This document shows, one piece after another, positions 32,101 to 64,000 of a DNA stretch of 64,000 nt. Source of the stretch: Cyanophora paradoxa CCMP329 (taxonomy: Eukaryota > Plantae > Glaucophyta); assembly GCA_004431415.1 (NCBI GenBank), contig QPMI01000395.1:496001-560000 (forward strand). The letters run 5' to 3'. Numbering within the stretch: the first letter of the stretch is position 1; every line of letters begins with the position of its first letter. The notes under the pieces were generated by a model. It was not told where the DNA came from. It was given only the letters and a program-made list of their open reading frames with translations, and searched no databases. Position numbers and translations under genes: made by a program.

Positions 32101-32642
32101 CGGTGCAGGGGACGCCGCGGGCCGCGTTCGCGGGGGCGCACAGCGCCGCCATCTCGCGCTCCGCGAGGCTCTGGCGGACCTCGGCGGCCGCCAGGCGCGC
32201 CTGGTACGCGCGGGCCAGGCGCTCGGGATCCCGGGCGAGCCGCTCCAGCGGCGCCAGGGCGTTCGCGCCGAGCTCGACGAGCTGCCGGACGGCGGCCCGC
32301 CGCGACGCCTTCCTCGACATCGCCTGCGCGGCGCCTCAGGGCGGCGGGGGCATCGCGGATCGCCTTGCCGCGCACGTCGACCGCCTCGGGGATGTTTCGG
32401 ATCTTGCGCTGGAGCTCGATCGCTGCTGCCCGCACGCTCTGGTCGGGCATCTCGGCGAACGCTGCGAACGCGCGCTTCGCCGCGGCGAGCCATATGTGCT
32501 CGCTCTGCTCTCCCCCGTCGACAATGATTCGCCGCAGGGCCCTCGAGACTGCAGAGAGCCGGGCCAGGTCCTCGAGAGCCAGGCCGCCGCAGACGAGCGC
32601 CCAGAGCTCGCAGGGAAGCTCCCGAACCTCGTGCTGCTCCAT
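29172..32642 (-). CDS. FBXO21: F-box + SirB1/transglutaminase-like + YccV-like (hemimethylated DNA-binding fold) protein, FBXO21-like
   Basis: F-box ELPCELWALVCGGLALEDLARLSAVSR; SirB1 motifs DGAILIA, LDE|LA, GNRE|NYYREENSLI..GIPISLS|VLFAAVARRAG..PQ|HFL; YccV motifs FRIGDVVR, GAVVGWD, GRHF..YEP..YPDD. One homopolymer frameshift near 32345. Confidence 0.8.
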
Positions 32643-32676
32643 TTCTGCGCTGTACCCCATCACAAAAAAAGGGGCG

Positions 32677-34601: not shown

Positions 34602-34614
34602 GAAGACGCGGCAG

Positions 34615-36274
34615 GGGGTACCAGCATGCGGCAGAAGACGTCGCGGGGGGACACCGACTCGAGGGCCGCGGGGGAGAGCGGGAAGCCGAACTAGAAAGGG
34701 GGAAAGGGGCGTCGGAAGGGGGGTACGGCCCCTCGGCGCGGGCGCGGCGGGCGCACGAATCCCTGCAGCTCCGCGAGGCGCATCGCGCGGCCCCTGCGAA
34801 CGAAGTCAGAGGGGTCAGCGAAGGGTCTCGAGGCGGCGGGCGGCTGGCGCGGTCCAAAGCGAGCTTGAAGCGAAATCGCCCCACAAACCCCCAGAGCCCT
34901 CTGGGCCGGTACCCCCCTCCCGTCCCTTCGTTCGCACCCGAAGCAGTCGACGTAGCGCCAGGCGTCGGGGCGCAGGTCCTCCCCTGGGGCCGCCGGCTCC
35001 CCCCGGGGCCCCTCCCGCGCCTTCACCAGAAAGTGCTGCGCGGGGGATTCGAACCCGTGAGCTCGAGACGGAACCCGAATTCGAACCCGGGTCGCTTACC
35101 TGGGGCGCCCCGACCATGCGGACGGGTAGGCCCGCGCGGCGCGCGACCGCCGCGAAGAGAACCTGGCGGTACCCCGCCGCAGCGTGAGGAGGGTGGGGGG
35201 AAGGGAAGGAGGGTACGCCGATCACCGAGAGGGAGATGGGGATGCCCTGCTTCGAATCCAGGAGGCGGTGAATCAGAGAGTTCTCCTCCCGATAGTAGTT
35301 CTGGGGGCGGGGGGGGGTACGCGTGAGGGGCGCAGGGGGCAGAGGGGGGGAAGGGCACGCCTCGCGGTTTCCCCCGTACCCGAGCTCAACAAAGAGGTAC
35401 CTGCGCGGAGTGCGCTGGTACCAGGGAGCGATTCGGGGGGTTGACGGGAGGGGTACGCGTACTTTGCGAGGCGCTCGCACCGCTCCGCGTCCGTCGCGGA
35501 CGGGTCGTCGACGCGGCAGAAGCCGTCCGCGAGCTGCGAACGAAGTCAGAGAGAACGAAGGGAGGGAGGGAGGAGGGTACGGGCGGCTCGCCTCGTCCAG
35601 CCTGCGGAGGACGGCCTCGCGGCTGGCGGAGGGGTCCGCCCAGCGGGCGATGAGGATAGCCCCGTCCTGTCCGGAATGAGAAGAGAACGGCGCCGGCCCG
35701 CCGCGGACGGGTACGCGCGCCTCGTACGGGAACTCGGTGCAGGGGACGCCGCGGGCCGCGTTCGCGGGGGCGCACAGCGCCGCCATCTCGCGCTCCGCGA
35801 GGCTCTGGCGGACCTCGGCGGCCGCCAGGCGCGCCTGGTACGCGCGGGCCAGGCGCTCGGGATCCCGGGCGAGCCGCTCCAGCGGCGCCAGGGCGTTCGC
35901 GCCGAGCTCGACGAGCTGCCGGACGGCGGCCCGCCGCGACGCCTTCCTCGACATCGCCTGCGCGGCGCCTCAGGGCGGCGGGGCATCGCGGATCGCCTTG
36001 CCGCGCACGTCGACCGCCTCGGGATGTTTCGGATCTTGCGCTGGAGCTCGATCGCTGCTGCCCGCACGCTCTGGTCGGGCATCTCGGCGAACGCTGCGAA
36101 CGCGCGCTTCGCCGCGGCGAGCCATATGTGCTCGCTCTGCTCTCCCCCGTCGACAATGATTCGCCGCAGGGCCCTCGAGACTGCAGAGAGCCGGGCCAGG
36201 TCCTCGAGAGCCAGGCCGCCGCAGACGAGCGCCCAGAGCTCGCAGGGAAGCTCCCGAACCTCGTGCTGCTCCAT
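34615..36274 (-). pseudogene. 3'-truncated copy of FBXO21-like gene (F-box + SirB1, no YccV)
   Basis: Same as 30976..32642; ends at duplication junction. Confidence 0.75.
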
Positions 36275-36308
36275 TTCTGCGCTGTACCCCATCACAAAAA
36301 AAGGGGCG

Positions 36309-39300
36309 ATGCTAGCGCTTCCCGGGTGGCGAGCGCCGCTGCTATCGCGGGCCCTGGGGCTGAGGAGCTTGCCGGCCGGCATTCGGCTGGGCCCCGCGGT
36401 CGTCCCGCTCGCACCGCGACTCGCACAAGGTCCGCGCCCCGCCCACGCCGGCGGTCCCGCAGCGCCCGACGCGCCGCGCAGAGCCCCTTCGCCTCTACAG
36501 GACGCGGTACTCGAGGCCGCCGAAGGACCACTCGGATCGCCTGGGCATCGACTGGTTCGGCGCGCGATCAAGCGGCACCGCCAATGCGGCAGCGGAAGCG
36601 GCGAGGCGCGAGGCGGAGGAAGAGCACGACGAGCACGACGAGCGAGCCGGCGATCCGGCCGCGCAGCAGCCCGCCGAGGACGAGGAGTCTCCGGCGCCGC
36701 CCCCGCTGAAGAGCCAGCGCATCCTGCGGGAGAAGAAGACGCGGCAGGGCTTCGTGCGCACGGCCGCGAAGCTCATCGAGATGCACAAGGCGGGCGCGTC
36801 GGACGCAGAGCTGCGGGCGGCGATCCTGGAGACGCAGCAGAGCGGGCGGAACGCGGAGGACTACCCGGAGCGCCTGCTGACGCACGCGATGCACCTGCTG
36901 GCGCGCGCCGGCGAGCTCGCGGAGGCGGAGTCGCTCCTGCGGCGGGCGCCGGCGTTCGGCGTGCCCCGCAACGCCGCCGTGTACTCGCCCATCGTGCGGG
37001 ACGCCGCGTACGGGGGCGAGCCTGACCTGCTGGACCGGCTGCTCGCCCTCATGCGCGAGGACGGCCTCGTCAGGCCCCAGAAGGGCACCAAACTCCAGTC
37101 CTCCCTCTCCATATCGCTTTTGATCTTCGGGCGGGTGGAGGAGGCGGCCGGCGTCGCCGGCGGCGGCACCCGCAGGCCTGCTGGGACGTCTGCCACGCCA
37201 TCGAGAACGCGCTCTTCTGGCCCGACGCCTTCCGCGCGGCCCTCGCGGCCTACGGCCTCCCGCCCGGCGCCCCGCACACGGAGCTCTCCGGGCGTATGGC
37301 GGCGCGCGCGGCGGCGGCGGGGCTCCTGTCGCGGGCAGACCCGGCGGCCCCGCAGGACTGGTTCTGCAGGGCCCTCATGCGCGCGGAGAGCGCGGCGGAG
37401 GTGGCCGCGCTGCACGCCGCCGTCCTCCGCGTCTACCGCCACGTGGCCGACGCGCGGTCGGCGGCGGAGGCGGCGGCGGCGGCCGCCGCCGCCGGCGGAG
37501 GCGCGGCAAACCTCCCCGCGCTCCCGGCTGCGTGGGGCCGGAGGCTCACACCGGCCGAGCTGCTCCCGTGGGCCGAATGCGAGGCGGCCGCGAACGCGAT
37601 GACGCGCCTCGTCCAGGTTCGCGTTGCCTGTACCCCCCTCCTCCCCAGCTTTCCCGGGCTCACGCGGACGCGCGCAGCTCGGACTTGTGGCTGAGGCGGA
37701 GGCGTACGGGAAGCCCCAGCTCCTGGAGGGGGCCCCCTCGCCCTGCCGGGCGCGCCTCACGGCGGAGCTCCTGGGAGCCCGGCTGACGGCGGGGGACGTG
37801 CCGGCGGCCGTGGAGCTGTGGAGGAACCTCGTACGAGAGCTGGTGGACTCGCCCAGGCGCTGGGGCGACCAGGGAGGGGGCTCCCAGTCGCCCAAGAAGG
37901 ACGGGCAGCCGATCGCGAACCACCTGGTGGCGGTCTGCGGCCCGCTCATCGCCGCCGGGGCCGGCGAGGCCGTCGTGGAGGGCATCGCGAGCATCGTGAA
38001 GGCGAACCAGCCGCCCCCGGCCTTCGGGCCCTGCACCGTCCGCGCCGTCCACAGGCTGCTCGAGGCCGGCCGCCCCGACCTCGCCCGCCGCGCATCCGAG
38101 GCCGTCTCCTCGAAGGTGTACCCCCGCATCACGAACTACTGGGGCCTCAAGTACGGCGGGCGCGTGTACCCCCTCCCACCTCCCCCTCCCCTCCCTTACC
38201 CCCGAGCCGAACCCGCGTACCCCCGCAGGGCCCTGCAGGAAGTGTTCTGGAAGAAGGGGATACAGGAGAGCGACAAGGGGCCGGAGGGCGCGGCCCTCTT
38301 CGACGACCTTCTGCGGGAGTTCAGGTACCCCCCTCAATCCCTCTACCCCCCCCGCCTACCCCCTCCCCCCTCCCCCTCCCCCCTCGGCTCGCCCCCCCCC
38401 CTGCGTTCTGATACGGGTACGCTCGCAGGGAGGCGATCGTTGCGCGGATGCGGCTGAAGGTCCTCTGGCCGTTCGCCACTACCCCCGCGCCCCCCCAGCG
38501 ATCCAAGGCCGGCCCCTCGTCCCCCTCCCCGTACCCCCCCTCTCCCTCTCCCTCTCCCTCTCCCTCTCCCTCCCCCTCCCCCTCTTCCCCGGCGCCTGCG
38601 CCGGTTCGGGAGCCTAGGATGGCGCCGCCCTACACGTCCTCGGTCTTCGCGGCCTTCGCGAAGCGTCTCAAGGCCGCCTCGCGCCACGAGGAGGCGTTGG
38701 ATTTGATGGAGCTCGCCGCTGAGTCCGGCATGCCGCGGGAGCTCCTCGCCTCCTTCCGCATCGACTGCATGCTCTCCCTCGGCCGCAAGAACGCGGCCTG
38801 GCGCGAGCTAAAAATAGCCGAGCGGGAGCTGACGGACAAGGACCTCGCGGGGCGGCTGGTCTTCGCCTACGACGCCTTCATTCGCTTCTACAAGGGCGAG
38901 GGCAACGTACCCGGCATGATCGCCATCGTCCGCCGCGCCAAGGTAGTCGTCCGCCCCGCTTTCCCCGTATCCCCCCCCCTCCTCAACGGTTCGCAGGACC
39001 TGGGCGTGGAGCTGGGGGCGGGTACCCTGAAGCACCTCGTGGAGGCCTCCGAGGAGGGCGGGCGGGCGGAGAGCGCGGAGACGTGGCGCCGGCGCATTGA
39101 GTTTCTCGAGCGGGCGAAGAAGGTGCCCTGTACCCCCTCCCTTCTTTTCCCCCCTCTCTTCTTTTCTAATCCCGCGGCAGGCGAAGGAGGAGCTGGAGCA
39201 GCGGCGAAAGTCGCTGCGTAGCCGCCTCTTCAGGCAGTCGCTGGACGCGGCGATACAGGAGGAGGGCGACGACGGGGGGTACGCCTCCCTGGAGGAGGAG

Positions 39301-43925: not shown

Positions 43926-46900
43926 CTTTCGCCCCAGCGGGGCGCTCTTAGGGGTTGGGATAGTAGACTCTATGCCCAGCCCTCTAGACCGGGTCCGCCC
44001 AGGGCTGCTCGGATGCGCAGAAGCTAAACTGAACTGAGCTCATGTGATCTTCGTTCTCGCTCAGGTGGACGTGGCGGCGTTCGTGCAGCGGATGGAGGGG
44101 GACGCCAAGGCGCGCGACGCGAAGCTGAAGCAGGTGCCCCGCCCCCGCCCCGCCTCGGCTCGGCTCCGCTCCGCTCTGCCGGGGTGCTCTTCTAGAACGG
44201 GAGCACGCCTAGCGCCTCGCCTCCGCCACACCCGCTCCTAGCTGGGGATCTCGGCCCCCCGACCCCGACCCCGTCTCGGCTATGCCGGGGTGCTCTGCTC
44301 TGCTCTGCTCTGCTCTCGCTGCTCTGCTGAGGCTCGGGGCCCCCGACCCCGACCCCGACCCGACCCCGCCCCCGACCCCGCCCCCGACCCCGACCCCGAC
44401 CCCCGACCCCGCTGCTCGGCTCGGTTCCGCTCGGCTCCGCGGACGCCGCCGCTCCTTGAACGGGAGCACGCCTAGCGCCTCGCCTCCGCCGCACCCGCTC
44501 CTAGCTGGGGATCTAATTCCCTCGCCTAAATCCTACCTTGGCTCTGCTTCGCTTCGCTTCGCCGGGGTGCTCTGCTCTGCTCTCGCTGCTCTGCTGAGGC
44601 TCGGGCAGCACGAGGACGCCGAGCAGAAGATCGGGGGCGCTCTTATTTAAGACGGGGGGCTCTTATTTAAGAGTTGGGATAGAAGATAGACTCGTGCTTT
44701 GCCTTGGCTCTGCTTCTGCTGAGGCTCGGGCAGCACGAGGCCGCCGAGCAGAAGAAGGCCCGCGAGATGGCCGCACGCAGTGCGCAGTACCCCGCCCCCC
44801 TGGCCCCTCCCCCCCCTTTCTTCCCCCCCCCCCCCCCCCCCCCCCCTCCCACCACCACCCCTTCTAGCTTCACTTCCTCCCCTTCCTCCCCTCCCCTTCC
44901 TCCCACCCACCTCCTTCCTCCCCCTTCTAGCTTCTAGCTTCTAGCTTTACGGTCGACAGCTGAGCGGGGGCGCCCTTGCCGGCGCGCGCTGCTTCCAGGC
45001 CCCCAGGAGCCCCCCTCCCCCCCCCCTCCCCCCCCTCCCCCCCCCCCCCCCCAGCCTCTCCCGGCTTCCCCGAGTTTCAGTCTCAAGCTCTCCTCCCCCT
45101 AGCTTTCCGGACCCCCATAGCCTGCCCTCTAGCTTTCAGCTAGCTCGCCCCGGCCGTGGCCGGCTCGGCTGAGGGGCTTGGGGGCCGGGCAGGCGCGGAC
45201 CCGGTGGACGTGGACGCGTTCGTCAAGCGCGTCGAGGCCGACCTTAAGGTCGCCCCATCCCTCCCCCGGTCCTTAGATGAGAGAGATTCCTTAGCTCTTC
45301 TTAGATTCCTTGGCTTAGCTCTTCCTTAGATTCCTTAGATTCCTTAGCTCTTCTTAGATTCCTTGGCTTATAATTAGCTCTTCCTTTAAATTCCTTGGCT
45401 TCGAATTCGCGCGTCGAGGTCCCCGCCCCCTCCCTCCCTCCGTTCCCGCGCCGGCTCCATCCCCGGCGGCTCGCAGTTGCTTGGGAGCTCTAGGCGGACC
45501 TTAGGGCGTCCCCAGCTCCTAGCCCGTGCTCGGCTTAATCTAGCTCTATCTCTTCCCTAAGGCTAGGTGGCTAGCTCCTCTCGCCCTGCCCTGCGCCTCG
45601 CCCTTTAGCTTCTTCTTCTTCCTTTCCTCGGGTCTGAGACTTGTGGTGCGCAGACGCGGACGGAGGGCCTGGCGAAGAGGCAGAGGGACCAGGAGAAGGT
45701 CCGCCCCGCCCCCCGCCCCCGCCCCCGCCGCCCCCGCTTCAGCTTCGCCCCGCTCGCCTTCTAGCTATAGCCCTAGAAGGCCCCGCCCCCGCCCCCGCTC
45801 TGTCGCTAGCTTTCTAGCTAGCCTCTAGCTAGCCCTAGAAAGCCCGCCCCCGCCCCGCCCCGATTTAGCTGGCTTTAGCTAGCCCTAGAAGCCCGCCCCG
45901 CCCCGACCGCCCCGCCCCGCCCCGCCCCCGCTTTGCCCAGCTCTCTGTTTAGCTAGCCCTAGAAGGCCCGCCCCGCCCCGCCCCGCCGCGCTCTAGCCGG
46001 CTTTTCCCTATCCGCACCTATCTCCACCGCGCCGCCCAGCGCCCTCCTCGGCCTTGCTCACGGGGCGGGAAGGGGGCCGGCTTTTCCTATCCTCTCGCCG
46101 GCTTTTCCCATCCGCACCTAGCTCCACCGCGCCGCCCAGCGCCCTCCTCGGCCTTGCTCACGGGGCGGGCGGGGACCGGCTTTTCCTATCCTCTCGCCGG
46201 CTTTTCCCATCCGCACCTAGCTCCACCGCGCCGCCCAGCGCCCTCCTCGGCCTTGCTCACGGGGCGGGCGGGGACCGGCTTTTCCTATCCTCTCGCTGGC
46301 TGCACCCATCCGCACCTAGCTCCACCGCGCCGCCCAGCGCCCTCCTCGGCCTTGCTCACGGGGCGGGCGGGGACCGGCTTTTCCTATCCTCTCGCCGGCT
46401 TTTCCCATCCGCACCTAGCTCCACCGCGCCGCCCAGCGCCCTCCTCGGCCTTGCTCACGGGGCGGGCGGGGACCGGCTTTTCCTATCCTCTAGCCGGCGT
46501 TTCCCATCCGCACCTAGCTCCACCGCGCCGCCCAGCGCCTCCTCGGCCTTGCTCACGGGGCGGGAAGGGGGCCGGCTTTTCCTATCCTCTAGCCGGCGTT
46601 TCCCATCCGCACCTAGCTCCACCGCGCCGCCCAGCGCCCCGCGCCGCCCCGACGGGGCGGGGGCTGACGGGGCGGGCGGGGGCAGGCGCTGGTGGCGGGG
46701 GCGGTGGGGGCCGGCAAGAGGGTCGACGAGCAGACCTTCGTCCAGCGCATGGTCTCCGACGCAAAGGCGCGAGAGAGCCCTACCCCCCATTTCCCCCCCC
46801 CCCCACCGTCCCGCATAGAGAGGGAGGGTAGGGCCGGAAGGAGAGGGCCGAGAGGGCGCTCAGAGAGAGGGCGAGGGCGAGGCGGGGCGGGCCTCATACT

Positions 46901-48082: not shown

Positions 48083-50771
48083 TCAGAAGCCGGTTCCGGG
48101 CCCGCGGCCGGGGTACGGGATCGAAGCGACGGCGTCCCACGGCTTGAGGCCCCCCGAGGACTCGTCCCAGAACTCGGCCCCCTGCGCCCCGCATCGGATC
48201 GGAGGTCGAGGAGCTAGCCCCGCATCAAGATATCAAATTAAAAGCTCGGCTCACGTAGGTGGTGAGGACGAATTCGCGGATCAGGTGCTTGACCAAGCCC
48301 AGGTCGACCTTGCCCGCCTGGATCCTGCGCGATTCGAATTCGAGCTCAGCGGGCGCGTTACTTTAACGGCGCGTGAGGAAAGGAGGCGCTGACATTGCGG
48401 TGGTGAGGGCGAGGCGCTGCTCGGCGACCTTGCCCGTCACCTCCTGGTACCGCTCCCACACCGACGGCCCGTTCACGATCACCACAGGCGGCGTCGGGGG
48501 CGGCAGGGCCCGCCCGGCCGCGGCCCCCGGCCCCGCAGCGGCCGTGCCCGCGCGATTCGAGCTGCGCTTCACTGTGAGGCGGGGAAGCCTCGAGCTCGAG
48601 GCGGGCGGGCGCGGGGAGGGAGGGGCGGGCGCACTGCTGCTGCTGCCTGTGGCCGGGGCCGGTTGCGGCGTTGACCAAAGGGACCGCTCCAGGAATCGCT
48701 CCGGGCATGGCGCTCGAACTCGCGACTGCAGCTAGCGCGCGCCTGACCGCGGAGGCTGTTCCAGGTGTAGCGCTCGGGCTCACGACTGCAGCTGGCTCGC
48801 TCCCGGCCGCGGGGGCTGCTCCGGCCACAGCGACAGCTCCAGACATGACGCTCGAGCTTGCAACTGCAGCTGGCGCGCGCCCGGCCGCGGCCGCGGGGGC
48901 TGCTCCGGCCACGGGGAACGCTCCAGACATGACGCTCGAGCTTGCAACTGCAGCTGGCGCGCGCCCCGCCGCGGCAGCGGGGGCTGCTCCGGCCACGGGG
49001 AACGCTCCAGACATGACGCTCGAGCTTGCGACTGCAGCTGGCGCGCGCCCCGCCGCGGCCGTGGGGGCTGCTCCGGCCGCAGGGACCGCTCCAGGCATTG
49101 CGCTCGAGCTCGCGACTGCAGCTGGCGCGCGCCCCGCCGCGGCCGTGGGGGCTGCTCCGGCCACGGGGACCGCTCCAGGCATTGCGCTCGAGCTCGCGAC
49201 TGCAGCTGGCTCGCGCCCGGGCGCGGCCGCGGGGGCTGCTCCGGCCACGGGGAACGCTCCAGACATGACGCTCGAGCTTGCAACTGCAGCTGGCTCGCGC
49301 CCGGGCGCGGCCGCGGGGGCTGCTCCGGCCACGGGGACCGCTCCAGACATGACGGTCGAGCTCGCGACTGCAGCTGGCGCGCGCCCCGCCGCGGCCGCGG
49401 GGGCTGCTCCGGCCACGGGGACCGCTCCAGGCATTGCGCTCGAGTTCGCGACTGCAGCTGGCTCGCGCCCGGGCGCGGAGACTGCTCCGGCCACGGGGAA
49501 CGCTCCAGACATGACGCTCGAGCTTGCAACTGCAGCTGGCGCGCGTCCGGCCGCGGCCGCGGGGGCTGCTCCGGCCACGGGGACCGCTCCAGGCATTGCG
49601 CTCGAGTTCGCGACTGCAGCTGGCTCGCGCCCGGGCGCGGAGACTGCTCCGGCCACGGGGAACGCTCCAGACATGACGCTCGAGCTTGCAACTGCAGCTG
49701 GCGCGCGTCCGGCCGCGGCCGCGGGGGCTGCTCCGGCCACGGGGACCGCTCCAGGTATTGCGCTCGAGCTCGCGACTGCAGCTGCCGCGCGCCCGGCCGC
49801 GGGGGCTGCTCCGGGGGCCGCTCCAGGCATGGAGCTCAAGCTCGCGATCGGCGCGCGGCCGACCGCGGGGGCTGCTCCGGGGACCGCTCCGGGGATTGCG
49901 CTCGAGCTCGCGATCGGTGCCCGCCCAAATGGTTCTGGGGCCCTGGGGGCGCCCGGGGGAGACGGCCAGGGCGGGGCGGAGCTCCGGGGGGCGAGCCCCG
50001 CGCCGCGGCCCGCGCCGCCCTCGTCGCTCGAGCTCGACGACGAGCTCGAGATCCACGAGTGCATTTCCCTGCGAATAATCATGACATCAATAAATAAGAA
50101 AGAGATCTAGCTAGAGGAAAGAACTGCAGGCAGGCTCGGAGAGGGGGAACGTCGGCGGGCGGGCGCGGCGCACTCGTTGGGCCACGGCAGGAGGTCCGGC
50201 CCCGGGGCCCCCGGCTCCGGCTCCGGCTCCGGTTCCGGCTCCGGCCCGCGCTGCAGGTGCGGTGGCCCGCCCCTCGCGATGCACCTCTGGCGCGCTCGCT
50301 CGGCCAAGAAGACCTGCCGAGATATAGCTTATAATAAGCTTATAATAATAACTAGGCTCAAGCTTCTGCCAAGAAGACCTGCGTGCGCCTCGTGTTCTTT
50401 GCCACCGCCCTGCGCGCGCACACGAAAAGCTTGAGAGTGAGATCTAGAGGCCGCGGCCGTCGGTCCGGATCCGACGCTTCGGAGCCTCGGCGTCCCCGAT
50501 GAGGCAAGGGCGACGCGTGCACGCACGCTGCGACCTTCTCGCGGTTCCTCTCGTACACGGCCTTGAGCTCGGCCAGGCCGCCGGTGTACCGGGTCTGGAG
50601 GCGCGGCACGATGTGCTTCTCTGCGTACTGGATGTACTTGGGGTCCAGCATCTGCTCCAAGCGCATCGCGGTCACCCTGTCGAACACGCAGAGCGCCGGC
50701 TCGCGCCTAACCGCCAGGTGGTACCTGCAGTGACCGAGTAAGGCACGGCGCGGGCGCGGGAGACTGGCCAT
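48083..50771 (-). CDS. Hypothetical protein with central Ala/Pro/Ser tandem-repeat region
   Basis: Exons MASLPRPRR...ERNREKVAA, VFLAERAR...(PE)n, REMHSWISS..repeats.., IQAGKVDLGLVKHLIREFVLTTY, AEFWDESS..GTGF*. Confidence 0.55.
48690..49920. repeat. Coding minisatellite, 84-bp unit with 78-bp variants, about 14 copies
   Basis: Unit encodes PGAVPVAGAAPAAAAGRAPAAVASSSAM; unit lengths are multiples of 3. Confidence 0.9.
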
Positions 50772-51012
50772 GGCGCTGACGACTCGACGCGCCGCGGTCA
50801 CTACATACATTGCAAGCTGGAGGGGGTGAGCACAAGGCCCCGGGGGGTGTAAATATAATCGCTATAATGACTATCATCGACGTGGTCACTAGAGTCGCTT
50901 AATGTAAATACGACGCGAAAGCTAAAGACGAAACTGGAGCTGGAGCTAATTAACTCGCTTAAGCTTCGAAGCTATATTATATCACTTCAAATAGGCTTAG
51001 TTAGTGTCCCAA

Positions 51013-51287
51013 TGTGATCCCAGCCCCATGCCTAGGCAGCAGGCGCGCAGGCGTAGCACGAACGGGTCGCAGCTGGGCTTCTTACAGGACTGAGGGGGTA
51101 TCGAACAACGTAGGGGGGGGTACAGAATCTGTCTACGAACCGGCAACGCCGGAGGAGTCCTAGGTACTGCGGAGGTACCGGCAAGTCTATGAGCTATTGA
51201 GAAGTGCTACAGCCTCAGCCCGCGCACTAGCACTATACTACAGAGTGGCTCGAAGGCCTGAATGCAAGCTAAACTACAGTGGCAACA
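51013..51287 (-). repeat. Candidate 3' LTR (TGTTG...TCACA on minus strand) preceded by PPT-like GGGACAAGAGGGC
   Basis: Purine tract at 51288-51300; TG/CA ends; host-like sequence to the left. Alternative start at 51742 (TGTGAT..ATCACA). Second LTR not in window. Confidence 0.4.
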
Positions 51288-51694
51288 GCCCTCTTGTCCC
51301 TAGGTCGCGTCCTCGCGGCCACACCAGGCGGCCGTCCCGACAGACTTACGGGCCCCGAGGCCCCGCTGCAGCCTTGACAGAGCAAAACCAAGCAGCGGTG
51401 TACAGCCGCTACCCAGCCGCTCGCTGCGCAAAGGAAAAGTTTTAGTTTAGCGCGAGCAATGGCCCTCGGCCCGCGACATCGGTCCGGCATGATCCGGTAC
51501 TCGCCTCGTCTCAGAATGGTAGCAGGGAAACCCAGGGGCCACACATTCCAGGGGAGCGCGCGTGCAGGGTGCACCGCCTCAGAGACGGGGAGCAAATCAC
51601 CATCCAATTTGTCATCGCTCAGAAAGGATCCCAACCGTTAACGTCGACTGATCAGCGTGAGGCAGCCGTGGCCGCGTCACGTGTGGCAATCGAC

Positions 51695-54600
51695 TCACGC
51701 CGAGGTGGCGTCAGCATCTCCATCCTCAGAGTCAACATCACAGTCATCTACAACGACGGCCTCGCCGACAGGTTCCGGGGGTACCACGACCTCGTCCTCT
51801 TCGACCTCGTCGTCAAGGGGTACAGCTCCATCAATGGCGTCGGGATCGCTCGCGGCCGGAGGGGGAGCGGCTCGAGGCGGTCGGCCCTGACGTCGAGGCT
51901 CTGCCACGTCGGCCGGCCGATCGTAAAAGGGGATCATGAGGTCAACGTGAACAAGGATCGACTGGGATCGATGCATGTTCGACGATGGCTCCCCGCGTAC
52001 AGTGTACAGAAGGCCTCGGGAATGGATCTCCTGCACCACGTAGGGACCCGTCCAGCCATTCCTCGGCCCCTTGATTCGCGCGCTAGTCTTGGCAGTGATA
52101 ATCCACACCAACACCTTGTCGCCAGGCTGGAAGACATAGGTAGGCTCGCGGCCAGTCCCGTAACGGAGCAACTTCTCGTTGTAAAGACGCCGGTGCTCGG
52201 CCACCGCAGTGATCCGATCCTTAGCGGCCCTCGCCGCCGACAGCGCGTACTCGTACAGAGAGATCGACTCTTCGTTTGGTTCCCGCAGTACCAGATCGAG
52301 TCGAAGCTCATCGGGTAGGAGCAGTTCGCGCCCGTAGTGTAAGACTGCCGGCGAGAACCCAGTCGCCGCATGGATTGTTGTCCTCAAGGCAAAGAGAACT
52401 TTGTAATGATGGAAGGGCCAGTGAGCGCGAGGCTCGTGGTTCTCGTCGCACATCGCGTACACCAATCGCTTGTAGATGCCGCCCAGACGCTCAGCGCCAC
52501 CGTTGGTAGATTGGTGGTTGATCCCAGTGTAGATCATGCGCGTACCCTTGGCTCGCCAGAAGGTTCCCCAAAGAGACTTCGGTCCGAGGACCGTCCCGTT
52601 GTCAGAGAGGTAACGCTTGGGAGCACCGTTAGCCGCGAAGATGATCTGTGCCGCCATCTCCAGGGCCTGGCCGTCAGCCGCGGTGTACATGATAATCTCC
52701 GGGAACTTGGTGAAGGCGTCGACGTCGACTATCACGCCGGTGAAGAGGTGGACCCCGCGCCTGTGAGGTTCCATGGGGAACAGGTCGACCTGCCTCAAGT
52801 CCCCAGGATGCGCGGATTCCAGCACCATGTGTTGGACTCTCGGGCGGCGTTGCGCCTTCGCGAACTGGCAGTGTCGGCACGTTTTCACGAAGCGGTGAAC
52901 AGCGTTCGTCATCCCCGGCCACCAGAAACGAGACGCGATACGCCGCGCCACAATGGGAGCGCCGCGGTGTGCCCACCCGTCGTGATACACCTCGAGGAAG
53001 GTGCGTCGCCACGACGGGGGAACGAGGATTTGAGCTCGCATGGTAGGCAGGAATGGTAGCCGAAGGACAGTGCCCTCCTCATCGATCGTGTAGCCCTCGG
53101 TTTCACGAGCGAACCGTCGTCTCGCAGACTCGCAGTGAATGCATTGCTGCACAATCTCTGTTTCTACCGTCGCCGCTCGCCGGTGCCGAAGGCACATGGC
53201 GTTGTTCTCGCCCTTGCAGATGAAGGCTCGCAGCAGTTGACAGAGCGGGTCCTCCGCCTGTGCTGCAACGACGGCGGCGCCGTCGACAGCGAGTTTGGCA
53301 ACAGACGGTGGTACGGGGACGTCGACCAGTGGTCGGGGTCCCTGCAGCCACGTATCTTCCACCACCACGTCGTCAGGTAGATGGATGACTGCGGGCTTGT
53401 TGCGGTCTCCTCCGGCAGGGCCAATAGGAGACTTGTCCAGCGGCGCGACAGCGTCGGTGCTCATCGGAGTAGGCTGAGGAATTCCAGAGTCGCGTTGCTG
53501 CTGTAAGTACGCCTCGTACTCAGCTTCGTCGGCGACGTCGAGAACGGCGGGGGGCGCAATGGAGTGGCGAGAGGATCGAGATCTCCTCCCTGGGAGGCGA
53601 GGGGGCAGGTCTGCGGCCCGCTGAGGGGTGTCTGCTGACTGCTTCCACGCTTCCCAGTCGGCGTTCCTCGCTTCGCGTCGCGTCGACTTGGTCGGCGGTT
53701 CCGGTCGGTTGCACGAGCGGCGGTTGGCATCGTGACGACTCTTGGCCTGGTCTGACAGCTGCTCGCGGCGGTTATCGAGGGCCTGCTTGTACTGCTCCTC
53801 TGACTCGCGGCGTTGCTGCTTGGTTGTCGTCTTCGCCTTGTCTCGCTCACCACGTGCAAGCCGCTCGGTGAGCGGGTCGCGCGGAGGTGGAGCGGGGATT
53901 CCGTTGCCGACGGACGAGGTAGAAGGGCCAGCTTGCGCCTGGAGGCGTTTCCGATCTCGTTCGGATTCCAAAGCTCGCAAGTACGAGTCGTTTAGAGGGG
54001 GAGGAGGGGGGAGTTTCCGCGGGCGTCCACGTGGTCGCTTCGGGAAAGGGGGCACGGGGGCTGGGCAGCCCTCTTGTCCCTGAGACTGAGCTCCGTCCGC
54101 GTGGGGTGGTAGCGAAGGCTCAGTGCGAGTGCGTCGGGGCGGAGGGGGCTGTGCACTCTCGTCCTCGTCACCGGTGTCACTGTCGCCGTCGGGCCGAATT
54201 CGCCGTCGCGAACTGGGGGGTGACGTCGGCGGCTGGGGTGCTGTAGAGGAGGGACCGAGCCGTTGGCCAACGGGTCGATGCTCGTCTACAGGGGGCGCTT
54301 GGCGACGCCGCTTCGCTCCCGGCGCCAACGCCCATGCTGGCCCGTCGAGCGTGTCCGTGGGGGCTACCGCGAAGAGCTGGGTTGGGTCGTCGAGATCGCC
54401 TCGGCGGGGTACACCGAATCCTCGAGCTCCGTCGGGGATGTCAGTCGTGAGGTCTGAGCCGTCACCCGCTCCTGGGAGGAAGAGGTCGTGTGACGGTTCC
54501 AGACGCGACTCGAAGTCTGCAACAACGTTGGTGCGCCCCGCGCGGTACTCGATGGTGTAGTTGTAGCCCTGAAGTCCCAGCGCCGCTCGACAGAGCGCCT

Positions 54601-55995
54601 TGTTGTTCGTCACGTCCTGTGACTTCAACCATTGGAGTGCCGAGTGATCGGTCCGGACTGTAAATGGGTGCCCGCACTCGAAGTAATGGCTCCACACTTT
54701 CACCGCCCAGAGTACCGCGATGCATTCCCCTTCCGTCGGACTTTGAAACTTGCGCTCCGTCGCAGTCAGGGTCCTGCTGATGAAAGCGATGGGACGCTCT
54801 CGTCCGCAGTCGTCAGCCTGCATGAGGACCGCCCCCATGGCGCGCTTGCTCCAGTCCGTGTGGATGACGAATGGTTTGGCAAAGTCGGGTAAGAGTAGTG
54901 CGACATCCTCCATGATGGCGGCCTTGAGGTCGTCCAGCGCCCGTCGAGCGTCATCGTCCCAGGTGACCGTCAGCGAGTCAGCTCGTGTTGCTCGCGTGAC
55001 TAGGTCGCGTAGGGGCAGTTCCCGCTTCGCGTAGTTGCGAATGAACCGTCTGTAGAATCCAGTCATGCCGATGAAGCTGCGAATGGACTCGACAGTTCCG
55101 AGATCTTTTTCCTGGGTCTTCTCGATGAGGGCCATCTTGGTCTTGTCCATCTTCACGCCGTTGCGGCTGACACGGTGTCCGAGTAGGTCGATCTCTTTCA
55201 CCATGAAACGGCATTTGGACGGTTTGAGCTTGAGGTTTCCTCGCTCGATCGCGGCGAAGAAAGCCTCAAGGTCGACAAGGTGTTGTGAGGCCGTCGGGGA
55301 GTGGACCGTGAGGTCATCAACGTAAGCGACAACGCTTGTCGACAGCAGATTGCCCAAGATCGATGTCACTGCTCGACAGAACGCCGCTGGTCCGTTCGTA
55401 ATACCAAACGGGGTAACTCGCCATTGGTACATGCCCCAGGGCACGATAAACGTCGTCAGAGGCCTGGATTCTTCGTCGAGTTCAAGCTGCCAGAACCCGG
55501 AGGTGGCGTCACACGTCGAGAAGTACGTCGCGCCTTGCAGGCGTTCGAGTTGATCGTCTATTCTCGGGAGAGGAAAGACGTCGCGCTCCGTGAGCGAATT
55601 CAGCTTGCGGTAATCGACGCAAAATCTCATTGTCCCGTCCTTCTTGGGCGCCAGTACCACTGGGGAACCGTATCCAGCTTGGGAGGGTTCGATCAGACCA
55701 TCTTGCAGCAGTCGTTCGATTTCGGCTTTGGCCGCCTTCTCAGCAGGGGGAGAGAGGCGCCGGGGCACGCTGTACAAAGGCAGATGCTTCGTAGGTACGC
55801 CGGGGAGGAGTCGGATGCTGTGACGGTACTTCAGTAGCTCTTTGGGGTTGATGCGCTGCGCGAAGCAGTGCGCCATCCGTGTGAAGAGGCTACGTAGTTG
55901 GTCACGCTCCTCCTCCGTCACATCGTTGTCGTCTTTCGACGGCTGCATGAGATCGTCGACGAGTTGTCGGACCTCCTCCTCCGTCTGTGGTGGGG
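51695..55995 (-). CDS. pol: Pol: reverse transcriptase, RNase H, long linker with AT-hook, integrase
   Basis: ORF 51695..56176 with intact YVDD, RNase H acidic residues, integrase HHCC, DDE and GPY motifs; no chromodomain seen. Confidence 0.95.
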
Positions 55996-58750
55996 GGTGG
56001 CGTTGGCGCTCGAAGGAGGTTCCATTGCGTGGGGTTCGGCGGGTGAAGCGGAGGAGATGGTGATGCAACGCGGTTGCGCCGACGGCGTGGTCGGGGCAAA
56101 CGTGATGCATACAGGGCTGAGGAGGGGCCTGCCTTGCCGATAGGTATCGGCAAAGTGGGGTTCGAAGATCTTGCACAACTCGTTGATCTCCGATGGCATC
56201 AGAATCGCGCGTGATTCTCGGGTGTATCGCGTGACGAACGCAGTCACGAAGCGTGAGAGTTGGGTTTGAGCTTCGGAAGTGAGGACTGGGGGCGTCGGCG
56301 CCGCTCTGTGAGCGGGGTCTAGGCCTTGGTCCTCGGTCTGGGGTTGTGGTGGCCGTGCAAAAACAGAGGGGTACTGTTCGTGCACTCGGGATACGTAACG
56401 TCGAGGCTGTGATCGCCCAGGTACAATCACGGGTTGCACATTGGAGAGGATTTGGACGGCAATGGAAGAGATGGGGAACTTGCGCTTCTCGTCACTCGAC
56501 CAGGTCTTGTAAGTACCCGTCGGGTATCGATGGACGTCGTCGTGGGGTCGGAACTCGCTCTCGGGCCACTTGCCGAATTCCGCCTCCGCGATGACGGTCC
56601 CCGCTTTCAAGCGGACGGGTCGGCGTTGTGGATTGCAGACCTGAGCGAGGAAAGCTCCTCCTCGAGGACGTCGATGTATTTGGTGAGGGACAAGATGACG
56701 CGGTTCATCTCCTTCACCGGGGTCGTCGGCTCCGTCGTCGTCTCCAACAATGTGCGGCGGCGGCGTGAGGAGCATCTCCGGCGCATCGTCAGTCGCGTCT
56801 TGAGGGCCCGTCGAGACGTAACAGCGAACGAGAGCTTCGCCTGGCCCGACGGTGACATCTTGGGCGAGGCGGACCAGAACGCCCCCGTCGGTCTGGTCCG
56901 CAAGCAAAAAGGGACATGGTATCGTTCGCCATTGTCGGCGTCAGGTGCCGTGATCGTCATTCCCAGTTAGTCGGGTCGAGCGAGATGTGAGCGTTCATGG
57001 CAATGAGCGTCGCCAATCCAAGGAGCATTTGAGTAGACCCCATGAGGCCCTTGTCCACCACTAGGACCTCTCTCACCGACCGTACGGGACCAATCATGAC
57101 CGCCATGTAGGCGATGCGAGCGTAAGCCGTCATGTCGTCGCCAAATCCGGTCAGTTGTACTGGCGGCGCGCGGCTGTAACGGAGGCCCTCGATGCGCGCA
57201 GCGAGGTCTCCGTCAATCACGTCAGCTGCGGCGCCCGTATCCACCAACGCCAGAGTTTTGACGGACGGTCCGACTTTCCGTCCTGGTGCATAGGACCCGA
57301 GTCGCACCGACACGCAGATGCGACCATCTGCAATCCGTTGCTTCATTGTCCGGTCGGGTTTTGTCAGCTGAGCGATTCGACGTCCAATTGCCGTATCCTC
57401 GGCTGTAGGTATGTCGTTAGGAGACACGATGTCACCCAGCCAACCGAGCATTCTTGCCGTGCGGACACGAAGTGCTGTCTGGTAGCTCCGTTCCACTGGC
57501 GTCGTCAAAGGTCGTGACGATGAGATGGCGTCAGGTGGGAGGCGGGCAACCCGGATGCGGGCAGTCTTCTCCACCTTGGAGACCGATTCATGTGCTCTGT
57601 TGAAAACATGTACCGCCGCGAAGGTTCGAGGTCGGTTTGGAATCAGGCGGGTGCTGTTGGACGGCACCGGGCCGCTGCTAGGACGAGTGCTGTGGTCCTG
57701 CCGGCTGAATCCGAGTCCTCGTCTCGGGGATGTTGTGAGGTATTGGGCGTGTACGCTGGTCTTCCGGCCAAACCAGATGTAAGCGATGCTCTCATCCGAG
57801 TCAGGGTTGGGATCGAAGTCGACGAGCGTGTCGTATTCCGCGTAATGATGGCCGTGGCGACTGAGGCCCTCGCGCAAGTAGCTGACCAGCGTCTTCCACT
57901 GGTGAGGTAGGCGGGTGTCGCCCTGCAGGATCGAGTTGAAGTAAAATCGAGCGCGGTCCCGATGGATGGAGACGAGCGAGGCGTGTTTGACCGCGTCCCA
58001 CGCGGTGAACCCCAAAGTGTTCATGATGAACGCCATGCGAGTGAACAGGGCGCGTGTGCGCACGACGTCCAAGGAGGCTCCCGCCGAGTTGGAGAGGTCA
58101 GGCGGCCGTGCTCGCAGATCCTCAGCCAATGACACGAGGGCGTCAGCATTGAGCTGATGCGGTGTTCGGAATGCGCTCCAGTCATACAAATCGTATTCAG
58201 TCCTGAAGTTCGTTCCGTCTTCGTCCCAGAGGTCTGGCCAGAGTACGGGGATGGACTCGTGAGACTGACCGTGTGCCGCGAAGCGTTCCCAGCTGTACTC
58301 CGTGTACGAGGTGTCCACAGGCGTTTGGGAGAGGTCACGGTAGTGTGCACGGAAGTAGAAGGTAGGCGGGAGGGCTCCTTTACTTCCGCGTGGAGCTAGT
58401 GCCGAAGTTCGAGAAGTCGTGCTTGTGGTGTCGCTGTCGCTGCCCGCTACCGGTGGTGTTCGGGCGACGCGCCGGAAGCGAACGCGGTGAACTCCTGTTT
58501 GGGGCAGACGGGGCTTGAACTCGGGTGCGACGTCGAAGCGACAAAGGCGAAGTGCCCGAGCCGTGTCACCCCTGTCAATCACGACGGGCGTCTTGCCGCC
58601 GACCCGAGCACCGTCAATTGTTCGCGGTGTGATCCACAGGGCCCATTTGTGCTCCTTCTCGCCGTCGTTCGGGAGGTCTGTCTCCTTCATGCGCTTCGGC
58701 CTCGGCTTCGTACCGGCTAGACTTGGATTCGCGGCGGCCGCGTTCTGCCG
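55996..58750 (-). CDS. Gag-capsid-like segment, aspartic protease and beta-rich PR-RT linker (frameshifted pieces)
   Basis: RARFYFNSILQGDTRLPHQWKTLVSYLREGL..DESIAY resembles the retrotransposon Gag pattern (weak); ALVDTGAAADVI..MLLGLATL is a retropepsin; DVTVGPGE..VCNPQRRPVRLKAGTVIAEA resembles the linker of many gypsy elements. Confidence 0.7.
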
Positions 58751-61195
58751 TCGTACCAGTCGGGCTGCTCCATCGTCCCCGTCGCCTGGTCGTACAGGTA
58801 CGTCCGCGGGTATCGGGGGTCGACTTGTAGAGCGCCGCGCAGCGGGTTGATGGACAACCCGACGCCCTCAAATGGTCCGGGAGGAGCTCCGTCCTCGTCG
58901 TCACCGATGTAGAGGTGGGGCCCGAAACGGCTAGGATTTGCTCCGTCGGCTTCTGTGAGACCTCCGCTGTACCGCAAGGGGGGTGCCAGTTCAGCTGTCA
59001 TGGTGATGCGGTCGTCCCGTGACGTGCCGGAAGCGTTGTAAGCCAGCGTTATCCAGCGCGTACGATGCTCCACGAGGTCGTCGGAGAACAGTATTGCGCC
59101 GTAGTCAAGGAGAAACAATTCGGGAATCGAATCTTCCTCGGACGCGTGGATCTCATTGTACTGTAGGAGTACCTCCGGACCCACGTGCTGTTCGTAATGA
59201 CGCCAGGACCGTTCGAACTCGTTCCTGTTGAACGTGTATTGGCTCACGCCCATGCCGAGGTTGTCCATGCCCCTGTTGCCGACCATGGTTCCGTCGTGTC
59301 CAAACATCTCGATGACGTTGACAGGGAGGTCGAAGGCAGCGGGAAAGTGTGCATGCTGCGACTGGCGATCTTCGTAGCGTTGCCATGTCTCCTTGGCTGT
59401 TGTGGAGGCGCGCCCGGCATTGCCGAGGGCCCCGTGGCGGACAACTGCCGCGAGTTGCGTTGTAATCGCCGTGACTAGTAGTGCCATGAAGGCCGTTGCA
59501 AACATGGCGCCGGGTGGTGGTGTTGCCGTGCCAAAATCCCGGGCGTACCAGTCTTGCAGTTCCTGAGACACGGTCATGTTGCCGTCGTCGTCGACACGGA
59601 AGTGTAGTAGGCTCGCATTCGAAGTCACGTATTCGTCGAGAATCTCCAGCAGGCCGTCGTGGATTGGCATCTGTTTCGACGGGAACGCCGTGTACAAACG
59701 GATTGAAGCTGCTACGTGATGTGCGAAGTGGTGGACCCAGTGATGTACTTCCGGCTTGAAGGGGATAACGTGGATGAATGCGCCCTCCGTCGGCCTAGTA
59801 GGCCTCTCGATGGTCTTCCAGACGCCGCCGGGTAGGATCGTCTCCTCAAGCAGAATTGGTATGCGATTGTAGTCGAAGTATGCAGGCTGGTCCGCGGGCC
59901 GTTGTGGCCTGTTCGAACGGGCGATTTGGAGCCAAGTGTCACGGTTGTTGGCATCGAACACGTGAACGACAGCCTGGGTGTCCCTGGTCCGCGTCTTTGT
60001 GTAAATTCGCGGGCCGCCGTTGGCGAAGACTTCCAGGGTGTCGCTCAGTATCGTCGGGGAGTTGAACTCGTGGAACGTGCCAGCATGGGGTCCGCCGTTG
60101 CCAAGCGGGGGAGCCATTTCATGTCCCTGAGGCCGCTCGAGTGGGCTTCGGAACGCTGTGAGGTAGTTACCGAGCTCATTCAACGGGTTGTGCTCATTGG
60201 TGGGAGCGATTGTCAAGGTGGTAAACTTGATCTCGCAACGGTTCTTGCGGGTATTGCCGTCATCTGTCACGGTCTGCACCCCGTGCAGGTACGGGTTGGA
60301 ACGATTGCGTGCCCGATGGCGTACCACGCCGTCGAGCGCCTGTAGTGCTCCGCGCCAACGAAGCTGGTTAAGCGCGTGGATCGGTCTGAACTCTGGAAGC
60401 TTCCGCATGAACTTGTCCATGTTCGTGTCGCCGTGCATGAAGTACTGAATTTGGCTCTCTGCCAGTGGGTGTTCCCATTCAGGCTTCGTATTCACGTACT
60501 CCTCCAATGCCGTCAAGTCACGCGTGAACGAGGACCGAGGTTGCGAGGCACTGCACATTTCTGCCACGAGGACGGCAGACCACGGAGTGTATCTCATGTT
60601 CTCGGCCATCGCGGAGCTGAGAGTACTGAGAAAGAATTCGACGCCTCGGAATGCGAGCGGCTGTTTGTTGATCGTGTATACTTCGTTGCGCGTGTCTGAG
60701 CGTGTCACGTCGTAGAGTTGCACCGTACTATCCTCGGGGATAGTGGGGTCCTCCAGACGTTCGAGTGCCGGCAGATCCTTGTGGTAAGACAGCGTGAACA
60801 AGCGGAAGTCGTTGTGTTGTCCCCTCCCGTGCTGGAGGCCCGAGTGCCCCGCCTCAAATGCCCACTGAGTATCGACGCTGTCGTCGAGTCCCCGCACTTG
60901 AGTATGATTGCTTGCGGTGGATGCGTTCCTGGGGTCGCCCCACCATCCGACGCGTTCGAACTTGTCGGTAACGTAGCCGTTCTCGATGATGTCGGCACCG
61001 AAGAACTTGTAGTAATATCGGGTACCGAATATGGCCCGGGCGTTCCGGCTGAGGTCGACAGTTTCGTAAAACCAATCGTCACCAGCCTCGTCTTCCGATA
61101 TTACTGTCTTGCGGCCCTTTTTCAGGCCCACGCGTTTAGCAGTTGAGCCTGAAGTTGTGCTACGTGGTTGCTGCACCGGTGCCGGGGCGGTCGTT
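58717..61195 (-). CDS. Unrecognised ~820-aa segment of retroelement polyprotein
   Basis: Long stop-free, intronless ORF with globular-protein composition; no motif recognised. Confidence 0.75.
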
Positions 61196-64000
61196 TCCGT
61201 CCTGAGAACATGAGGGGTGACTCCGCAGTGTGGTCTCGTCGTCGGCCGTAAAGAACATGGAATCGTGGATTCGGAGCGTGGTCAGTTCTGCCCAACGCAG
61301 GAGGAAGCGGGTGTCCCAATTGAGGCCGTACTCCGTGATCCTCTGACGTATCGGGGGAAATGGGACGTTGTACGCCTGCATAATGTCGATGGTTGCCGTG
61401 CTTGGATTCACGTAATCGTTCGGTACGCAGGGTGTAAGATCCGCAAGTAGGTTCTCCTTCGACTTGTTCCAGTACTGGAAAATTCCGAGAATCTTGTCGG
61501 CCCCGAACATGATCGCCCGGACGAGGGAGAGCCGGACTAGGGTGTTCGGCTGGGAGTCGATCAGTCGAAGGCGGTTTGTCATTCCGTATGCCAGGCACTG
61601 AGCCTGCCAATCCTCCGCATCCGTCCATTTGTCCCCGTTGTATTTACGCTTCAACGCCCAATACAATGCGTCGAGAACAGTGGCGTGCCACAACGTGGGG
61701 TTGGAGAGGAGTACCGCCTCCTGATGTTGAATACGGATGGTGTACGGGCCCTCAGGGTAGCCTTCAACCAGTGACAGTTGCAGGTCAGGTCCCGGTTCCA
61801 CGCGGCTGAGCTCGAAGCTGCTCGGGTAGCTACGAGCACCGACGCGCTCATGTACTCTCTCCGGGTAACGGTCCAGATGGAGCCGCAGGGCCTGTCGGAA
61901 TGCTGCTACGTCGCCGAGCTCGCGGGCACGCCCTAAGGCTGTCCTCGCGGAGAGATGGGTCACGAACACGTTGCCGGAGTTTTCGGCACCGGTCCGGAAC
62001 GCCTGAAGACCTCTCCAGAGTGGAGAAAGCGGGTCTTCGGAGTAGTCGAGGCGTCGCTCGTTACATTCAATCACCGCTAGTTTGTACTCGTCGAGTAATA
62101 CACCGTGGAGCTCGAAGGGCTTCCGGGGAACGTCCAAGGTCCCCTGTTCCGGGGGCGTCTGTGTCCGGTCAAGGTACCGGTCGACGGTAGCCAGCCAGCT
62201 GTTGGGGCTATTCGCGAAGTGGCCTCCGAAGGGCAGGTTGAGCACGCGCGTGATGTACTCCACCATTTCGACTCCCATTGTGAAGTAGAAGTCTGGGCTT
62301 GTCGGCCACAGCAGCCTATTTGGCTTTGCCGAGAACGGATCCGAACAGCGAAGCCAAGGGCTGCGCCATGAGTGATGCCGTTCCAACTCCCGAGGCTTCG
62401 AGTGGAAGTAGATGCGTGCTCCAGCCGCTGCAATGTGAATTGCGTTGGCCAGGGCTGTCACCCGCATCTCGAGGGCGATGTCTCGATCGAGCGCTGGAGG
62501 TGTCGCCGTGGGGTAAGGCGCGAATTCGTCGTCGAAGGGCGGCGGCAGGTGCGACTCGAGGGTTAAGCGTTCCAGTGCCGTCATGCGGACCGTCAGCGCG
62601 TCGGCGAGAGTGGGGAAAGGCGCATAGTAGTCCCCGTGCGGTTCGAAGTAAGTAGGGAATTGTGCCCGCATGCTTCGGCCGTACGAGATCATGACGTCGA
62701 AGAGCCAAGGCAATATTCCTTGCCGTGAAGTCGTCAGGGTTATTGCTTGTTGTGCATCAAGGCCCAGCAGCTCGAGGACAGATGCGTGACGCAGCGTCTC
62801 TTCCAAGCTATCCGTAGTGTCGGCTGTGCCCGCAATTCTCATGATCGCATAAGCGACAGCGCGGAGATGGGCGGTATGTTTGAGCAAAATCGCTGATTGC
62901 TCCTCGACATCGACGTACGTGACGAGTCTGTCGAGGACGTGCCGGTTAGCCGGGTTCAGCTCCGTGAGTCCGTCAGGCAGCGTGGAAATGTTTGTGAGGT
63001 AGAGGCCGGTCTTGGACGGGTCCGTACTTGCATTCCATGGCGTGTACTTGCGATAGGTTGCAAACAGGTTGGGATTGTCGACCGCAGCCGCTGCCTCTGC
63101 GTAGCCGGGCATTGTGCTTGGTATGACCCCACAGTCTCCGAGGCGCTGTGAAACTGCAGCAGTGACCTCGCCCAAGTGTGTGGTTCTCACGATTGCGCCG
63201 GTCTCCGGCGGGACTGGAAGTGGCGGTTCAGGTTCCGGAATCGGGACGGGAATGGCGCCGACTTGGATGTAACGCTGGGGATCCTCAGTGACAGTAGGGT
63301 AAGTCCGGGAAATGTGAATTGGTCCCGAGCCATCTTCCTCTGCCGTTGGCTCCTCCTCGTTCCAGGATCGCCAGTATTCACGTGCATATATCCACGCGCG
63401 CGAGTGTGGGCGAGCCCACAGTCGGGGACGGCAATCCCCTGGGCATTCAATCCAGTCGGGTCCTGGAGGGCTTTCGGACTCAACGATGAAGTCATCCGGC
63501 CTTGCCGTAGGGCTGTGATCGGCGGGGTTTGTCATGCTGGGCGTGTCCGTGGGCTCAACGTTCGACCTGTCTACCTCGCCGGCCGTGGCCGGGGCGGTAG
63601 TTGCGGGGTCGTGGTCGATTCGTTGTCAGTTGGCAGTGTCAAAGTCTGCTCCCTGACAGTTATGGTCATGTCCGGAGTCGCTTGCTCTGAAGCTATAACG
63701 CCGGGTTGAGCCACGCCAGCCGTGGCCGGGGCGGCTTCCAGGGGCGTCGTAAGGGTCGGAGATGCAGGGCTCGGGTTGATTGTTACGTTGGTAGCATTCG
63801 TCTCAGTTTGCGGCGCGCCGGCCGTGGCCGGGGCGACGGTAATGAGACTGGAGGGATTCGTAGTGCCATAACCAAGGGCCACGCTGTCGCTGGGGCTGAG
63901 GACACCACTCCCGGGATCGTCCAGGCTTGGGGGTCGGCCGAGGTCGCCCTGAACGGGGGTGAAGGTGTCCGTTCCGGGGTCTCAGATGACGACGTCGGTG
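61160..64000 (-). CDS. Unrecognised ~790-aa segment plus Thr/Pro-rich N-terminal region of retroelement polyprotein; continues off window
   Basis: ORFs 61160..63535 and 63571..63882 join on restoring one C at 63605-08; three APATAG repeats span the join. Confidence 0.7.

Follow-up and report, generated by a model that had tools for sequence, protein, structure and literature searches.

We analysed a 64,000-nucleotide (nt) stretch of the genome of the glaucophyte Cyanophora paradoxa CCMP329 (contig QPMI01000395.1, positions 496,001 to 560,000; hereafter the window), the last 13 kb of which contain a minus-strand retroelement whose enzymes follow the gypsy order (protease, reverse transcriptase (RT), RNase H, integrase) and which encodes, ahead of the protease, two long segments, A and B. 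The features are collected in Table 1. The element is a young multi-copy Ty3/gypsy-type long terminal repeat (LTR) retrotransposon of C. paradoxa. Specifically, its RT matched that of Ty3 best among 12 solved sequences (E 4e-65, 223 bits; no tree was built), as compared with 130 bits for a caulimovirus and 109 bits for a foamy virus, and it shares with elements of the Ty3/gypsy group (Metaviridae, e.g., yeast Ty3) the order of the enzymes, an LTR starting with TG, a polypurine tract and, by prediction, a frameshifted pol. Near-identical proteins with EukProt accessions of C. paradoxa were found on at least five named contigs, and these were 98.7-100% identical to the open reading frames (ORFs) of the window, save for one model with a predicted intron. 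The element was detected in 20 runs from 15 studies. In DNA contigs from three runs, one piece extends 5,018 nt past the window edge, so that the element would be about 18 kb long provided that this piece stays within it; the window excludes the 5' LTR and the start of ORF1. In addition, an 81-nt intron in the 3' untranslated part was skipped in two runs presumed to be RNA, which come from two studies, and kept in two DNA runs, indicating that the element family is probably transcribed. No account of this element was found in the literature listings.

Table 1. Features of the C. paradoxa element in window coordinates (aa, amino acids; all on the minus strand)
Feature	Position	Strand	Description and evidence
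3' LTR	50987..51287	-	About 300 nt, TG start; contig boundaries, raised depth, loose ends and sequence
Polypurine tract	51288..51301	-	Sequence
Intron, 3' untranslated part	51424..51504	-	81 nt, GC-AG; skipped in two presumed RNA runs, kept in two DNA runs
pol frame	51695..56940	-	1,748 codons: spacer, RT, RNase H, low-complexity insert, integrase; N-placeholder frame analysis and Pfam
ORF1	56607..63998	-	At least 2,467 aa: stalk, segments A, B and C, protease, 102-codon tail; extra letters from reads, frame analysis, gene models of other copies
Stem-loop	56869..56901	-	Predicted -1 frameshift stimulator, 5 nt past the heptamer; -22.0 kcal/mol
Slippery heptamer C CCU UUU	56907..56913	-	Sole in-frame X XXY YYZ heptamer of ORF1
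Aspartic protease	57005..57253	-	In frame with ORF1, carries DTG; Pfam gag-asp_proteas E 1.2e-4 (does not reach the cut-off)
Gag candidate, helical stretch in segment C	57780..58063	-	By-eye likeness to capsid N-terminal domain only
Segment B	59011..60774	-	Some 590 aa of mixed alpha/beta type; 42 columns invariant across four lineages
Hydrophobic helix	59440..59508	-	Top 19-residue Kyte-Doolittle mean of the ORF, 1.89
His cluster HHWVHHFAHH	59716..59745	-	On one face of a predicted helix
Basic linker, A to B	61100..61213	-	7-9 Lys/Arg per 25 residues, three lineages
Segment A	61214..63178	-	About 655 aa, two modules, mostly helical (low-confidence prediction)
Module A2	about 61214-62020	-	Common to P0011/P0014, absent in P0012
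Module A1	about 62423-62902	-	Common to P0012 and P0014
Pro/Thr/Ser-rich stalk	63179..63998	-	P0014 has a similar stalk lacking APATAG
APATAG repeat 3	63578..63595	-	Same hairpin as repeat 1
APATAG repeat 2	63715..63732	-	Same hairpin, one G-U pair
APATAG repeat 1	63817..63834	-	DNA folds: 5-bp GC stem, CACG loop

An initial annotation had described the region ahead of the protease as two long aromatic-rich, stop-free and intronless segments. Two such stretches without stops, one of 821 aa (61160-63625) and one of 854 aa (58717-61281), are indeed present on the minus strand. Their lengths are far beyond chance: when positions 58080-64000 were base-shuffled 300 times, the longest frame had a median of 191 aa and a maximum of 362 aa. 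Furthermore, one presumed RNA contig covers 55800-64000 in a single piece without a splice joint, indicating that the region is intronless. The segments are real modules but not separate ORFs. The C. paradoxa assembly is long-read based (PMC6704402), and we compared it with short-read contigs from 8 runs, 7 of which hold the element (the eighth, from another organism, had none). A single extra letter at each of 55991, 56961, 58761, 61183, 61213 and 63604 was found in all seven element-holding runs, and 7 extra letters at 63923 in six of the seven. When the frames were rebuilt with N placeholders at these read-supported insertion sites, a single frame of 2,467 codons was obtained from 63998 to 56607, which is open at the window edge and runs into the protease; gene models of other copies bridge the A/B and B/C junctions likewise. 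The apparent ORF boundaries are errors of the assembly, and the case shows how long-read indel errors and gene predictors together split such elements into false host genes. In contrast to known Ty3/gypsy elements such as Ty3, ORF1 of the C. paradoxa element encodes at least 2,467 aa in a total of about 18 kb, and the switch of frame comes only after the protease, which belongs to the first frame.

Segments A and B gave no match in Pfam, PHROG, NCBIfam or PDB sequences, in agreement with the earlier statement that no Gag, Env or host domain is recognisable in them; neither an ordinary Gag nor a known extra-ORF family, the match named beforehand as refuting, was found. To cover a wider range, a HMMER search over 1.84 billion representatives was run with 1,195 residues of another copy, which span A's C-terminal 60% and the greater part of B and leave out the stalk and the first part of A. 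At E values up to 0.001 it returned 4 proteins, namely the own family and three divergent relatives, P0010, P0011 and P0012 (E 3e-69, 3e-36 and 2e-16; 27-39% identity), all of which are C. paradoxa gene models and presumably reside in LTR elements; no relative of A or B outside C. paradoxa appeared in this search. P0014, an isoform at the P0011 locus, has the order extra domain, Thr/Pro stalk, A, basic linker and B. The order A, basic linker, B is kept in P0011/P0014 and P0012, the latter having A1, the linker and B without A2, and the B cores are 21-38% identical in pairwise comparison. The cargo is therefore an old, modular and conserved unit present in at least four lineages of C. paradoxa. 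Note that copies of the element itself are about 99% identical, and their changes in A plus B (3 synonymous, 5 non-synonymous) are too few for dN/dS, so that conservation across the 21-38% identical lineages stands in for it. The "about 2,000 aa globular" cargo of the initial annotation holds as conserved coding modules, but the conserved part comes to only about 1,250 aa (roughly 655 aa in A and 590 aa in B), the remainder being Pro/Thr/Ser-rich or basic linker. As judged from sequence, A and B are two new protein families. ORF1 carries no ubiquitin-type tail. It is hardly credible that the region is a functionless passenger or an assembly artefact: the young copies lack a synonymous excess (3/8), a count too small to tell, whereas the 7.4-kb open frame, its presence in 20 runs of 15 studies and the collinear conservation argue against it, and this explanation is already largely refuted by reads and homologues.

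Among the 42 invariant residues of B, 29 belong to the Gly, Pro, aromatic or aliphatic classes, and His, Cys, Ser and Lys are all missing, which suits a scaffold better than a His/Cys enzyme or zinc site; the 13 polar ones include D285, R299, N347, R348, E363 and D443. Cys is scarce, with 5 residues in A and 2 in B (7 in about 1,450 residues). Structure models built from 4-5 sequences were poor, with a mean pLDDT of 35.7 for B and 32.8 for A, values of 50-81 being attained by only some 130 residues of B. Searches for similar folds with these models gave nothing above the usual background.

No Gag profile match was found anywhere in the window and no CCHC motif in any element ORF within it, in which respect the element again differs from Ty3/gypsy. 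Between B and the protease lies segment C, in which a helical stretch, which we take by eye to resemble a capsid N-terminal domain (no profile supports this), is followed by Arg/Pro-rich sequence; segment C lacks a zinc knuckle and matched nothing in Pfam or PDB. With neither a knuckle nor a profile match, Gag looks reduced. Since no Gag was matched and the ORF starts outside the window, the earlier placing of the cargo "N-terminal to Gag" is unproven.

Downstream of the protease, the change from ORF1 into the -1 frame of pol is real, and a programmed frameshift is likely to bring it about. The complete read-based indel table contains no indel at 56907-56940, the slippery heptamer is followed by a stem-loop whose stability was matched by 0 of 1,226 sampled 41-nt windows of the element, and a sibling gypsy family matches 56870-56964 (95 nt) at about 83%, no change being listed within the heptamer, all of which point to such a signal. 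The wider 106-nt fold around the stem-loop was not unusual (z -0.5). Many LTR elements shift frame at classical heptamers (PMC5009743). A presumed RNA contig of the sibling family is 8.0 kb long, 5.1 kb of which lie upstream of the frameshift signal; this family matches only the signal (56870-56964) and the start of RT (55800-55840). The zero frame past the slippery site (56607-56913) comprises about 100 Arg-rich codons with a possible coiled coil at the end, and about 480 codons of low-complexity Pro/Arg/acidic sequence lie between RNase H and integrase (53100-54560).

The three APATAG repeats noted in the initial annotation are present in the stalk, starting at 63834, 63732 and 63595, and were not found in the three relatives checked. 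The GC-stem/CACG-loop hairpin that their DNA can form occurs 4 times in the window as compared with 0.37 expected, with three of the four in the stalk. An RNA signal may be as good a reading of APATAG as a peptide repeat, and the identical codons of the repeats would also be explained by recent duplication. In addition, contigs of 2.5-3.4 kb in four runs match 51302-51592 and 63806-63835, with 1,653 other letters between. This shorter element, which has 30 nt at the first APATAG repeat and 290 nt of the 3' end in common with the present one, is probably a non-autonomous partner with its own diverged LTR start.

Proteins made in the Gag frame are mostly structural. The explanation we favour, although we put it at somewhat less than an even chance, is that A and B are structural, matrix- or shell-like proteins of the particle, likely cut free at basic linkers. 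Most ribosomes would stop after the protease, making cargo and protease abundant and RT and integrase rare, so that A and B would be produced in equal number to Gag and would greatly outnumber RT and integrase, which is the pattern of structural proteins. Cleavage by the protease would fall at the Pro-rich and basic linkers, freeing A and B; the basic linkers would bind RNA, and the stalk hairpins could help to select the roughly 18-kb RNA for packaging. An additional layer of A and B might thereby compensate for the reduced-looking Gag. This explanation is favoured by the abundant frame, the conserved order, the basic linkers, the scaffold-type invariants and the reduced Gag taken together. 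Retroviruses arose from LTR elements, in which the first ORF usually encodes a small Gag; in the present case some 1,250 conserved residues, for which no relative was detected beyond a single alga, are sited where structural proteins are made. If A and B build the particle, they represent a new way of packaging a very long retroelement RNA. Since C. paradoxa can be grown axenically, its particles should be purifiable.

Several points weigh against a structural role. The particle location, self-assembly, cleavage and RNA binding of A and B, as well as the place of the relatives in LTR elements, are all inferred, and no fold backs the role because the models are poor. The 13 invariant polar residues of B could form an active site, and the absence of A2 from P0012 means that the cargo can do without one of its parts. 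In the repeat hairpins, the outer stems exceed chance only weakly, as 467, 74 and 250 of 2,000 random flanks fold equally well. Furthermore, the 5 kb upstream of the window may contain a normal Gag, placed further upstream as in the giant gypsy-like Burro/GYPSM1 elements of planarians, whose Gag-frame polyprotein also carries non-structural host-like domains (PMC6431247).

Burro is similar in layout, having a giant polyprotein with many extra in-frame domains before the protease. As described in PMC6431247, however, it has a typical N-terminal Gag with CCHC knuckles together with recognisable host-like domains (MATH, BIR, ankyrin, BCL2) and env, whereas within our window none of these was detected, the host-like domains having no Pfam match in whole ORFs or tiles. 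Ogre elements of plants are likewise gypsy elements of large size whose additional coding sequence has no known function; according to that source they carry 1-2 extra ORFs and LTRs of 1.9-6.5 kb, unlike the in-frame cargo and the LTR of about 300 nt found here. By analogy with what was proposed for the Burro cargo, A and B could be accessory proteins acting on the host, for example against silencing or protein turnover, with a canonical Gag perhaps upstream; we consider this unlikely, though likelier than the other rivals. The 5,018 nt past the window leave room for such a Gag, the loss of A2 in P0012 shows modularity, and the basic linker could serve as a nuclear signal. Moreover, C. paradoxa repeats are heavily CpG-methylated (PMC12344493), and despite this the element is spliced in two presumed RNA runs and has near-identical copies on at least five contigs. 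On the other hand, no host-like domain was found in Pfam or NCBIfam, unlike in Burro, and a captured host gene would often have a relative among the 1.84 billion representatives. If A and B do act on the host, they would be new anti-silencing tools in the sister group of green plants.

The initial annotation had also suggested captured viral genes, and one such lead was tested. B might be a very divergent alphavirus-supergroup capping enzyme (methyltransferase-guanylyltransferase (MTase-GTase) plus its membrane-binding Iceberg region), captured from a plus-strand RNA virus and, dead or alive, serving as a membrane ring or replication compartment. Four of the best 25 Foldseek rows for the B model were plant or algal RNA-virus replicases or methyltransferases (E 0.02-0.04), and within the 25 rows the top two probabilities (0.33 and 0.21) were theirs, but TM-scores in this search were 0.07-0.12. 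The best-modelled part of B (strands, two helices, a hairpin with invariant G567, helices) follows the Iceberg layout as given in PMC4392871, and the last two virus blocks fell within it (ranks 4/694 and 1/699). Four profile and alignment tests, in which 27 natural Vmethyltransf proteins were set against a 4-sequence B profile, nevertheless stayed within chance. No HMM match was obtained on B or its relatives, the hhalign probability of 0.3% was inside the shuffled range, the block chain was equalled by 22 of 150 shuffles, and the global alignment reached z 1.3, lower than a control stretch of A (2.35). The marks of the MTase-GTase are a strictly conserved His before helix A and a DxxR motif (PMC4392871). 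At the position picked by eye, P0010 has His, with Arg seven residues on, but the other three of the four lineages have Leu or Met; DxxR is absent, Asp and Arg being separated by three residues rather than two. Insect retrotransposons with a captured viral superfamily 1 (SF1) helicase show that replicase domains of RNA viruses have been joined to retrotransposon proteins before (PMC6338049), although those domains are plainly recognisable by sequence and B is not. We therefore regard a capping-enzyme origin as improbable. A broader version, in which the lineage let its Gag shell decay and formed a replication compartment from new proteins, with B as a captured capping or crown protein of a plus-strand RNA virus, so that a retroelement would have adopted the compartment-forming module of an unrelated virus class, seems to us a shade less probable still.

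An Env-like or other infectivity protein for cell entry appears very improbable. The Pro/Thr-rich stalk and the single hydrophobic helix would fit it, and Burro has env in frame between gag and protease (PMC6431247). However, the few Cys residues do not make a Cys-rich ectodomain, no fusion-protein match was found in A or B, and the helix is not conserved as a membrane anchor. The hydrophobic stretch and the His cluster are both present as first reported, but neither is kept as a functional mark in the three other lineages. In the relatives the helix contains more polar residues, with hydropathy falling from 1.89 to 1.09, 1.41 and 0.60, which suggests a packed helix as likelier than an anchor, and the His residues of the cluster are mostly replaced.

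At the far end of the LTR (50987), the minus strand reads TGA rather than CA, and one presumed RNA contig continues there into sequence in which the LTR start recurs as its reverse complement. Either this copy is clipped at that end, perhaps, or the LTR may have terminal inverted repeats. Beside it, a short ORF at 50358-50861, with no Pfam match, has several related read contigs and belongs to another repeated family. A metagenome contig (L001:8792-11857), unrelated to the element, encodes a 1,021-aa protein that by eye looks like a cellular-type RNA-dependent RNA polymerase with a DxDGD motif. Elsewhere in the window, 30971-38242 is a head-to-tail duplication of 3.64 kb at 99.6% identity, which is either recent or an assembly artefact, and tandem repeats with units of 84 nt (48720-49931) and 99 nt (45964-46656), both multiples of three, are present.

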